Origin: Iphione sp. A-MEVVRFRX5
Taxonomy: Eukaryota
Assembly: GCA_976226885.1 (NCBI GenBank)
Contig: OZ320322.1
Coordinates: forward strand, 49,228,001-49,292,000
Reading direction: 5' to 3'
Length of the DNA stretch: 64,000 bases
Position 1 is the first letter of the stretch, and each line of letters begins with the position of its first letter. Made by a program: the position numbers and the translations under genes. The notes beneath the pieces were generated by a model. The model ran no database searches. It had not been told where the DNA came from and saw only the letters and a list, made by a program, of their open reading frames with translations. Shown here one piece after another: positions 55,944-58,900 of the stretch.

Positions 55944-58900
55944 ATGGCAGAAAAGTACGTTAAGGAAACATGGGATTGGATACGAGATGAGAATACATCA
56001 GAGGAGGATCAAAATACACACAATCATAAAAGAAAAAAATTGGAAAAACTGAAGAAGAGTTTGAGAAAGTTGGAAAAATTAAAAAGAAACTCGAAGCGAC
56101 AAAGTGACGGTGGATACATAGAGAAGAGGAAAAAGAAGAAGGAAGTGGCACATTTATCAAGAGACCAAGTGAGTAATAATCTTGTTTCATATATTCTAAA
56201 AGTATACATTCTTATATACTCATAAATAATTCAATATAGTAAAAGAGTACTTTTTACGTTTGATGATATTCCAGAGGAAACTACTTGCGGAATTTATGAT
56301 GGGTTATACAGTGAGTAGTTGTAGCAACACCAGCAGTAACAGCAGTGACAGCGGCAGTGCTGATGACGACGAAAGTGAATTTGTGAATGAAGTTATTATG
56401 GATGATGAATGGTCTGTGGAGAAGGAGGTAAGACATTGATAAATAAACATAACATTATTTGTTCAAGGAATTTATTGGATATAAAATAATACATACATAA
56501 TCTCAAATGATTGATTATACTGATGTAATAGATTGTCGTCAATATTAATTTGATTCACTTTATCCTACACTATTATCTAGAAATCACGCTTACTAGCATA
56601 TATAATTCTACAAGTAAAATTTTATAAGTTGACAGCGACAAAGTCTGGATAATGTTGCGTTGCGTCAAAATCTGCGTTGTCTGTGGATAATAATGATTTT
56701 AAGATTGTCAATAATAGAATAATTGAATATTATTGTTCTAGCAAACCGGAGCAGGAATACAAGATGACTACATAACACCATCTACGTCGAGGACAACTGG
56801 TTCAATGGAGCAATCAGTAGTACAGTCGACTTCCACAACAGCATATCAGGAACCACCCGAGTCCATGAATAGGGTATGTCATATCTCCTGATAATGTCAG
56901 AAAGAAATGAAATCAATATTACAACACTATATATTATTTTTTTTATAATTTTACAGGCAAGACAAGACTCAGGAAGAGTAGCGAGTGGCAGTAGTAGCAA
57001 TAGCAACAATGTCATTCCATCTACATCAACGGGGGTAAGCATACTAATAGCGGTTTCGTATGTGTATTATTTGTGTGTGTGTGTGTGTGTGTGTGTGATT
57101 TCTATGTTTAATTGCAGAAATGCACAACATCAAAGCACACACTTAATATCAACACTGTATATAATATAGTGTAACAATAGTCTACAAATCTGTTATTGTT
57201 CTAGGTAACGGATCAAACATGTCCATACTGCAAGAGGGTGTTCAAGTATAAGGCAAATGCGACAAAACACATCATAGGTTGCAAGGAGAAGATGCGCTTA
57301 AGATGTGACGTATGTCAGAGGAGGTTCCAAACAGAAGACCAGAAGAAGGCACATATGTCTAGATTTCACAAAAGGAAACTACATTCATTTAAATGTAAAA
57401 AATGTAACACGGTTTTCAACTCGAAACAAGAACTGTATATACACGATGGTAATCAACATGGTGGAGGTGATGAAGAATTACAACGTCCGCCATGGATAGA
57501 GGGTGACGAACCATGGAAGGCAGACACAGATAGAGACAGAGCAAGAGAATTCGAGAGAGTGTACAATGCCAACAGACGACATATTTTAGCACAGCACAGG
57601 GAAGGAAACATATCAGCAACTTATAATTTTCCTACAGATAATTTAGCTGGAGGTGGTAGAGAATTTGAAGCTCAGCTACAAGAAGTGTTTAGAAATGAAC
57701 AGAATGCATTTAAGATCAATGTAGGCTTTGGTACAATGCTACGCCATACGGAGACAGGTAAATATAGATACTTTGTCCCATATGGTAATAGCAGTGTGTT
57801 TCCAGAGCCTATACTTATATCAAACAAAGAAGATTTAGACTATGTGATAGGAAGACTGAGAAATGTAGATCCTGAAAAGCTCTTCACTGAAGACAGACCA
57901 GATACTAAATGGGTGTCTGTGGGTGTGATGAATGTCATGTATTTTGTATGGCGCACATCGTACCCTCTAGGACGAGGAGGTGGATTTTTACCTATGTTTT
58001 TAAAATCAAGACCATATTTGACCCTGTTAGACCTACACAGGGATGGGAGACCTGTGACAGATGAGTTATGTGCGTTCAGGTGTTTGGCATTGCATGAAGG
58101 AGAGGATCTCAGGATGGAAGAAAAGACACTCGAGTATTATGATCGGTGGAGGACATTCATGGCAAGGAAGTATGGTTTGACATTACCAGAAGATGCCAAT
58201 GAATATGAAGGAGTTGATAGCAACCAGTTGCATGAATTAGAAGAATGTTTTGAGGTTAATATTTATGTGTATGAACTGACTAGGGATGATACAGTAATCA
58301 TTCAACACAAACCATTCTACCATTTCCATAGCACAATGCATTTAAACGTGTATGGAGGTCACCTATCTTTCATTACAGATTTCGAAAGGTATGCCAAGAA
58401 ATTTGAATGTGTAATGTGTAGAAGGTGCTTTAAAAGGCGATTTGAGATCACACGTCATATGAAAGTATGTCCGACGAGAACAACTTATACGTATAAAGGG
58501 GGATACTATACAAACCCACAGACAGTCTTTGATGAACTGGAGACGGTGGGTATAAGTGTGCTACAAGAAGACAGATTATACAAGGACTTTGCAGTATTTG
58601 ATTGTGAGTCTATGTTAAGGGCAATACCAGAAGGTCATTGTCCTAAATTGAAATGGATTCACAAGCACGAAGTAATCTCAGTGGCAGTGTGCAGTAATGT
58701 TCCCGGTTTTGAAGATCCAGAATGTTTCGTATCCGAAGATACAGAGGTTTTGGTAGATCACATGGTCAGCTACTTGGAAAGAATTCAGGTTGCAGCTGTC
58801 ACCAGAGCTAAACAAAAATGGTCAGATGTATTAATTAATTTGGATAGACGTATAGAAGAAGAGAAAGCAAAAGTGGATAGTACTGAGGGTGAAAATATGG

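Follow-up and report, generated by a model that had tools for sequence, protein, structure and literature searches.

Conserved intron-like segments and a predicted spliced leader at the 5' end of the polymerase gene of a Polinton-type element from Iphione sp.

The polymerase gene of a Polinton/Maverick-type element in the genome of Iphione sp. carries at its 5' end a series of conserved intron-like segments separating short open exons, and we hold with high confidence that these introns are spliced as predicted. The evidence at the DNA level comprises splice signals, open exons, indels that preserve the reading frame, conservation over 15 subfamilies of copies, and gain or loss of exon 4 as a whole. 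A gene model in which a spliced leader of 196 residues is joined in frame to the zinc-finger/polymerase reading frame is likely. In this model, host RNA polymerase II would transcribe the gene inward from the left TIR and the host spliceosome would remove the three or four intron-like segments, thus fusing a probably disordered leader to the polymerase, supplying its ATG and completing zinc finger 1.

The element and the structure of its polymerase gene

The window, which is the whole stretch of 64,000 nucleotides that was analysed, contains the left end of element B, a Polinton/Maverick-type element of about 20.8 kb with TIRs and a 6-bp TSD, as well as element A, a second and diverged element whose end lies at 17991 and whose TSD is CCTACT. 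The polymerase gene occupies the left end of element B, starting about 710 nt inside the left TIR (55230), and the features of this region are as follows.

55224..55229, target-site duplication CTCCTC, 6 bp, repeated after the right TIR at L033:3065-3070
55230..55292, + strand, left TIR of element B, 63 bp, starting AGTAGT, with 100% identity to the right end, some 20.8 kb distant
55944..56168, + strand, exon 1, 75 codons (225 nt), beginning with ATG; basic (24 K/R), predicted helical, NLS-like runs
56169..56274, + strand, intron 1, phase 0, GTGAGT..TCCAG, 106 nt, GC 0.23; splits a conserved L[TS]xxE / RxxLAEF motif, in 39/39 copies
56275..56427, + strand, exon 2, 51 codons (153 nt); RKLLAEF, then Ser-rich and acidic tracts
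56428..56741, + strand, intron 2, phase 0, GTAAGA..TCTAG, 314 nt, GC 0.26; conserved internal motifs, candidate intronic 3'-end signal
56742..56873, + strand, exon 3, 44 codons (132 nt), starting QTGAG; PSTS motif
56874..56956, + strand, intron 3, phase 0, GTATGT..TACAG, 83 nt, GC 0.22
56957..57034, + strand, exon 4, 26 codons (78 nt); PSTS motif; absent in 6/15 subfamilies
57035..57204, + strand, intron 4, phase 0, GTAAGC..TCTAG, 170 nt, GC 0.32; TG microsatellite; the TAG of the acceptor is a stop in the frame of the ORF
57205..61956, + strand, exon 5; zinc fingers, putative TP, OTU-like region, protein-primed PolB core, NADAR
61980..62696, + strand, putative packaging ATPase ORF, weak Pox_A32 match
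63507..64000, + strand, start of the rve integrase/chromodomain ORF, which runs past the window (L032:507-1802)

The assignment of the element rests on several features. The TIRs start with AGT (AGTAGT ends), both elements have a TSD of 6 bp, and the integrase ORF matches PF00665 with 36.9 bits, above the cut-off, and has a chromodomain. The polymerase is of the protein-primed family B, as inferred from a match to PF03175 (E 8e-5, below the Pfam curated cut-off) and from the motifs DANSLY, KLIGNSAYG and DTDS; the ATPase-like ORF, a candidate for the packaging ATPase, matches Pox_A32 at E 0.0017, below the cut-off, with a visible Walker A motif. A profile search of the elements' ORFs gave no Pfam hit for a jelly-roll capsid or a cysteine protease, and the ORFs that may encode these proteins were assigned by position and motifs. 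Compared with element A, the capsid-like ORF of element B (L032:2626-3515) is short of about 185 codons (residues 165-350) and divided between two frames, which makes this copy look capsid-defective.

A preliminary description had assembled the polymerase gene from five exons and four GT-AG introns, and all its coordinates hold, including the stop-free exons of 75, 51, 44 and 26 codons. The four leader exons amount to 196 codons (GC 0.36-0.47), and the introns have the characteristics of the U2 type, with GT-AG ends, donors of the GTRAG- or GTATG-type and pyrimidine-rich YAG acceptors; a YTRAY branch motif was present in 18/54 introns and is uninformative. Downstream, the TAG at 57202 is in frame with an ORF of 1583 codons and closes it upstream, the first Met of this ORF being residue 30, after zinc finger 1. 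Exon 5 has three zinc fingers at residues 6-85, zinc fingers being the sole matches in a PDB sequence search, and an OTU-like region in which C289 and H386 are invariant in 29/29 aligned proteins. Both elements, and four database relatives as well, have a NADAR domain fused to the C-terminus of the polymerase (~61576-61950).

Two details of the preliminary description do not extend to the whole family. The zinc finger indeed has no upstream ATG in the window, and the same is true of 32/39 copies, but the other 7/39 have a Met after the last acceptor and ahead of finger 1. These seven copies speak against the leader model, as does Met30, which could start a product missing finger 1 only. Likewise, the shared acceptor of introns 2 and 4, TTATTGTTCTAG, is real, but the 12-nt match is confined to this subfamily: it is the longest among 72 acceptor pairs within copies, and none of 1008 pairs across subfamilies reaches 10 nt. 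We have treated it as a local duplication, conversion or chance event of no meaning for the family as a whole.

Conservation of the exon-intron layout

A genome search with the polymerase gave 150 scored matches among 1172 candidates, the matches (at least 150) falling into many subfamilies, several of which have copies 99-100% identical in protein, pointing to a recent expansion; the polymerase relatives of named origin belong to molluscs and a sea star. For the comparison of gene structures we used 39 copies, these being the window and 38 hand-picked upstream regions covering the identity groups, and distributed them over 15 subfamilies by a grouping of our own which matches the tree, with polymerase identities to the window copy of 64-78%.

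Exon 1 was found in 38/38 of the other copies, and in all 39 both exon 1 and intron 1 are present and an acceptor precedes the zinc fingers. Using protein motifs to anchor the end of exon 1 and the start of exon 2, we found GT and AG at phase 0 of intron 1 in 39/39. A frame-blind parse, trained on intron 1, exon 2 and the polymerase sequence, gave internal exons that are multiples of three in 91/109 cases, while ending in frame in only 18/39 copies and placing a spurious exon of 43 nt inside intron 2 of the window. A parse into stop-free exons with free phase returned exactly the four window introns of the preliminary description; trained on intron 1 only, it placed 92/99 further introns in phase 0, or 101/102 after retraining on its own output, a step that is partly circular. 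The exceptions are L044 (phase) and L063 (a short call of exon 2), and in both copies the exon appears frameshifted.

The exons and introns also differ in composition and in the changes accumulated within subfamilies. Mean GC is 0.44 in exons and 0.26 in introns over the copies compared, and indels are a multiple of three in 43/49 cases in exons versus 20/98 in introns. Substitutions are only slightly lower in exons (176/16262, 1.1%) than in introns (193/12985, 1.5%).

Conservation of the splice sites in sister copies and inspection of the left arm of element A had been put forward as checks on the dependence of the gene on host splicing, and both agree with this prediction. All eight splice dinucleotides are retained in nine of the ten closest sisters, and in the tenth exon 1 is displaced by about 410 nt, with no alignment there. 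In the left arm of element A (L031) splice sites are likewise conserved, and the layout is inherited in the element family. In the subfamily of element A (L031, L044) the predicted donor of intron 2 is GC instead of GT, and the last acceptor is AAG.

The leader also goes together with the polymerase. Exon 1 has 84 matches genome-wide, all but four of which were paired by eye with polymerase hits; three of these four have a polymerase downstream and the fourth has the same exon 1-intron 1-exon 2 layout. In addition, the leaders group into the same subfamilies as the polymerases do in the tree. Outside this genome, no homologue of exon 1 was found by alignment search among longer proteins, which is weak evidence, or among 1.84 billion representatives, and no usable Atlas hit was obtained; a basic spliced exon of 75 residues is hard to find in such sets. 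Searches for related loci yielded two weak matches in metagenome contigs, covering the zinc fingers only, and none in viral contigs. Two database relatives of the polymerase, P0022 and P0025, have long Ser/acidic leaders inside a single predicted ORF, which suggests that this type of leader is older than the introns or independent of them.

Intron 2, the right-end gene and alternative readings

Intron 2 is the only one of the introns that keeps internal motifs. In the window it contains AATAAA at 56442, TTTATT at 56471 (TTTATTG, to 56476) and GATTGT near its 3' end. Over the subfamilies, TTTATT is present 25-72 nt after the donor in 13/15 (1.2 expected), A[AGT]TAAA at +6..32 in 7/15 (1.4 expected) and [AG]ATTGT in the last 100 nt in 12/15 (1.8 expected); all three counts exceed those of each of 300 shuffles, the position windows having been chosen after seeing the data. 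No such excess of TTTATT or A[AGT]TAAA is observed in introns 1, 3 and 4. A transcript reading through past exon 2 would meet a stop within 1-25 codons in 15/15 subfamilies.

The element has a second spliced gene, which reads inward from the right TIR and has a conserved phase-2 intron. In the window it is represented by the copy of element A, element B carrying the same gene at L033:2481-1358 (- strand).

16187..17354, - strand, second spliced gene, in element A; exon 1 17354-17089, phase-2 intron 17088-16884, exon 2 from 16883

Left unspliced, exon 1 of this gene runs into an immediate stop (89 aa). The phase-2 intron passed an automatic check at 24/30 loci; among the remaining ones, two have by eye the same donor with an AAG acceptor, one has no exon 2, one is off by a base and two were not inspected. 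The product matches no Pfam family and gives weak Atlas hits to small bacterial hypothetical proteins. Downstream of its stop, TTTATT is again present, in 7/7 loci viewed.

The simplest reading of the intron 2 motifs is that of a 3'-end signal which competes with the donor of exon 2 and would yield a short two-exon product. In its full form, this reading holds that most transcripts end in intron 2 and encode a basic/acidic protein of ~130 residues, a minority being spliced on to give the polymerase polyprotein. It is compatible with the leader model, as both can hold, although the possibility that exons 1-2 may often end there counts against that model. The position-specific excess of the three motifs, the recurrence of TTTATT behind the right-end gene and the early stops on read-through argue for such a splice-or-stop choice. 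However, besides the choice of the windows after the fact, TTTATT is also the hexamer of an antisense poly(A) site and could equally be a protein-binding or splicing-enhancer site, a near-canonical sense hexamer is missing in 8/15 subfamilies, and early stops are expected in AT-rich introns. We put forward this reading as a tentative possibility.

A different role for the introns had been proposed in the preliminary description, namely that the symmetric exons are skipped alternatively, in a tissue- or germline-specific manner, and that this gates replication. All leader exons are phase 0/0, and exon 4 is dispensable in evolution: nine of the 15 subfamilies have four introns and six have three, according to the presence or absence of exon 4. 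Exon 3 has a mean length of 61 codons where there are three introns and of 62 where there are four, which indicates that the whole of exon 4 is missing and is not fused to exon 3; fusion of the two through intron loss is accordingly disfavoured. On the tree, the intron numbers need four changes, at least two of them on well-supported branches, gain and loss being indistinguishable. In L045-L047 and L070, TTTTCAG|ATGATA stands at the start of both exon 4 and the last exon, a hint at a local duplication as the origin of exon 4 in that subfamily. The modularity is thus visible in evolution, and to this extent the proposal stands, but as gain and loss among subfamilies and not as regulation.

That phase 0 is a device for skipping is not supported. 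If half of animal introns are in phase 0, four of four would occur in about 1 in 16 cases; since there are only four inherited intron positions, and not 140 independent events, their common phase is no evidence of a design for skipping. A splice site that shifts by itself has to do so by 3n if the frame is to be kept, and the phase-2 intron of the right-end gene indicates that phase 0 is no rule of the element. Furthermore, skipping of exon 3 or 4 would leave all catalytic domains intact and would not gate replication. Regulated skipping is therefore unlikely; phase 0 would rather have been inherited at four intron positions and maintained there by the reading frame, and it permits gain and loss of exon 4 and is in itself no control device.

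We have also considered that exons 1-2 constitute a small gene of their own upstream of the polymerase, placed like the adintovirus 'Oncoid' genes, with transcription of the polymerase beginning at its own start inside intron 2 or 4. Oncoid genes, as described in PMC8502044, are typically upstream of PolB and share with the leader a low-complexity, motif-bearing coding region in this place; the conserved motifs of intron 2 could be a terminator plus promoter, and some in-frame ATG lies upstream of finger 1 in 15/39 copies. Yet in every subfamily a phase-0 donor closes exon 2, exon 3 begins behind its AG with no ATG, and the frame and motifs are kept in exons 3-4. The leader, which unlike the Oncoid genes is spliced and predicted to be fused to PolB, contains none of the motifs LxCxE, CR1 and CxxC in 39/39 copies, and we have rejected its identification as an Oncoid; a separate gene is quite unlikely. 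Finally, it is very improbable that the leader derives from a captured fragment of a host gene, as cargo, given its pairing with the polymerase and its agreement with the polymerase subfamilies, which would still allow an ancient capture, or that the exons are chance patterns in AT-rich DNA, which the presence of exon 1 in every copy compared, the invariant phase of intron 1 and the frame bias of the indels exclude.

The leader and its relation to known systems

Returning to the leader as the N-terminal part of the polymerase, its composition changes from exon to exon, being basic in exon 1, acidic and Ser-rich in exon 2 and Ser/Thr-rich in exons 3-4. The first of these may serve nuclear targeting. 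Exon 3 starts with QxGxG in 31/39 copies, three subfamilies being without the Q; this motif is a candidate protease site, and the polyprotein would be cut by the element's own protease(s), possibly there. Polinton pPolBs have been proposed to be polyproteins cut by their own vOTU domain (PMC11161782).

Exons 3-4 barely align between subfamilies and nevertheless share short motifs. Among 15 representatives there are 14 occurrences of PSTS, whereas shuffles would give 0.3; neither the two other frames nor six control ORFs contain any. The set PSTS/ASTS/xGPS/PGTS/AGTS, which was picked after seeing the peptides, occurs 24 times against 1.3 expected, in subfamilies that are related and not independent; it is present in 14/15 representatives, one having none of these motifs, and is missing from the two other frames, and the six control ORFs have 1 against 2.2 expected. 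The published general patterns are less strongly enriched than this post hoc set, with 63 P/A/ExxS against 40 expected and 18 matches to the SPOP consensus against 5.5 expected. PSTS and AGPS are ligands of the USP7 TRAF pocket in human and herpesvirus proteins (PMC6203733), and several leader motifs fit the SPOP consensus taken from PMC7618200. The viral USP7 binders EBNA1 and vIRF1/4 and the SPOP substrates described in these sources resemble the leader in having PSTS, AGPS or related P/A/ExxS motifs in a disordered region, a likeness of motifs alone for which we claim no sequence homology. Our hypothesis is that the PSTS/AGPS/ASTS motifs of exons 3-4 dock a host protein with a MATH/TRAF domain, of the USP7 or SPOP type, which would tune protein stability.

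With the Maverick/Polinton elements (adintoviruses, Eupolintoviridae) and their pPolB of TP-vOTU-Exo-Palm organization, as presented in PMC11161782 and PMC8502044, the element has in common TIRs, a 6-bp TSD, pPolB, an rve integrase, a putative packaging ATPase, capsid- and protease-like ORFs and a length of 15-21 kb. It differs in the conserved introns of the polymerase and right-end genes, and its pPolB is set apart by three zinc fingers at the N-terminus, a long leader and, at the C-terminus, a NADAR domain. For intact vertebrate Mavericks, eight ORFs without introns are reported (PMC8097293), and the core genes of nematode elements are likewise described as intronless, with introns only in the cargo (bioRxiv 2022.07.12.499685). 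The gene structure found here contradicts this standing description and departs from a trait that is descriptive in PMC8097293 and does not figure there as a criterion for the group. In the Polinton literature searched we found no spliced pPolB of an animal Polinton, although Repbase entries and supplements may describe such introns. Since Mavericks are annotated by ORF-finding and described as intronless, annotation has probably left out the true N-terminus of the polymerases in this clade and overlooked small spliced genes close to the TIRs.

The adenovirus polymerase, like the adenovirus pTP, obtains its ATG from a spliced upstream exon. The adenovirus E2B mRNAs for pTP and polymerase join upstream exons to replication genes by host splicing (PMC11304566), as predicted here. 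The parallel drawn in the preliminary description is a loose one, the first coding exon of pTP having 9 nt (PMC2397415), or some three codons, and serving two separate genes, whereas here three or four exons together add 173-289 codons to a single fused frame. Conserved introns imply that host machinery would transcribe and process the elements in the nucleus, which is relevant to the expression of Polintons and to their relation to adenoviruses. A more far-reaching scheme, of which we are rather doubtful, is that of an adenovirus-like early transcription unit, in which both TIRs would drive spliced genes and the choice in intron 2 between splicing and polyadenylation would determine how much of a small nuclear regulator is made relative to a polymerase polyprotein, the latter recruiting host USP7 or SPOP via its modular PSTS leader.

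Spliceosomal introns inside Polinton-like elements also occur as the introners of dinoflagellates (PMC12166617), which are mobile and mostly gained after integration, whereas the introns described here are old, cannot be aligned from one subfamily to another, keep their positions and are passed on together with the element. In protist polinton-like elements group I introns are known in addition to introners (PMC12220804, PMC12166617).

The two elements also carry non-canonical accessory ORFs, at 9880-10755 (- strand), 11318-12088 (+ strand) and 12231-15083 (+ strand) in the window and at L032:4529-5350, 5816-6613 and 6875 onward. Two of these have signal-peptide-like starts and Cys-rich segments, with no Pfam hit of note, and their products are possibly secreted or membrane proteins. 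Between the two Polintons, at 46221-48738 (- strand), reverse transcriptase and tyrosine recombinase ORFs with direct repeats nearby identify a retrotransposon of the DIRS/Ngaro type.
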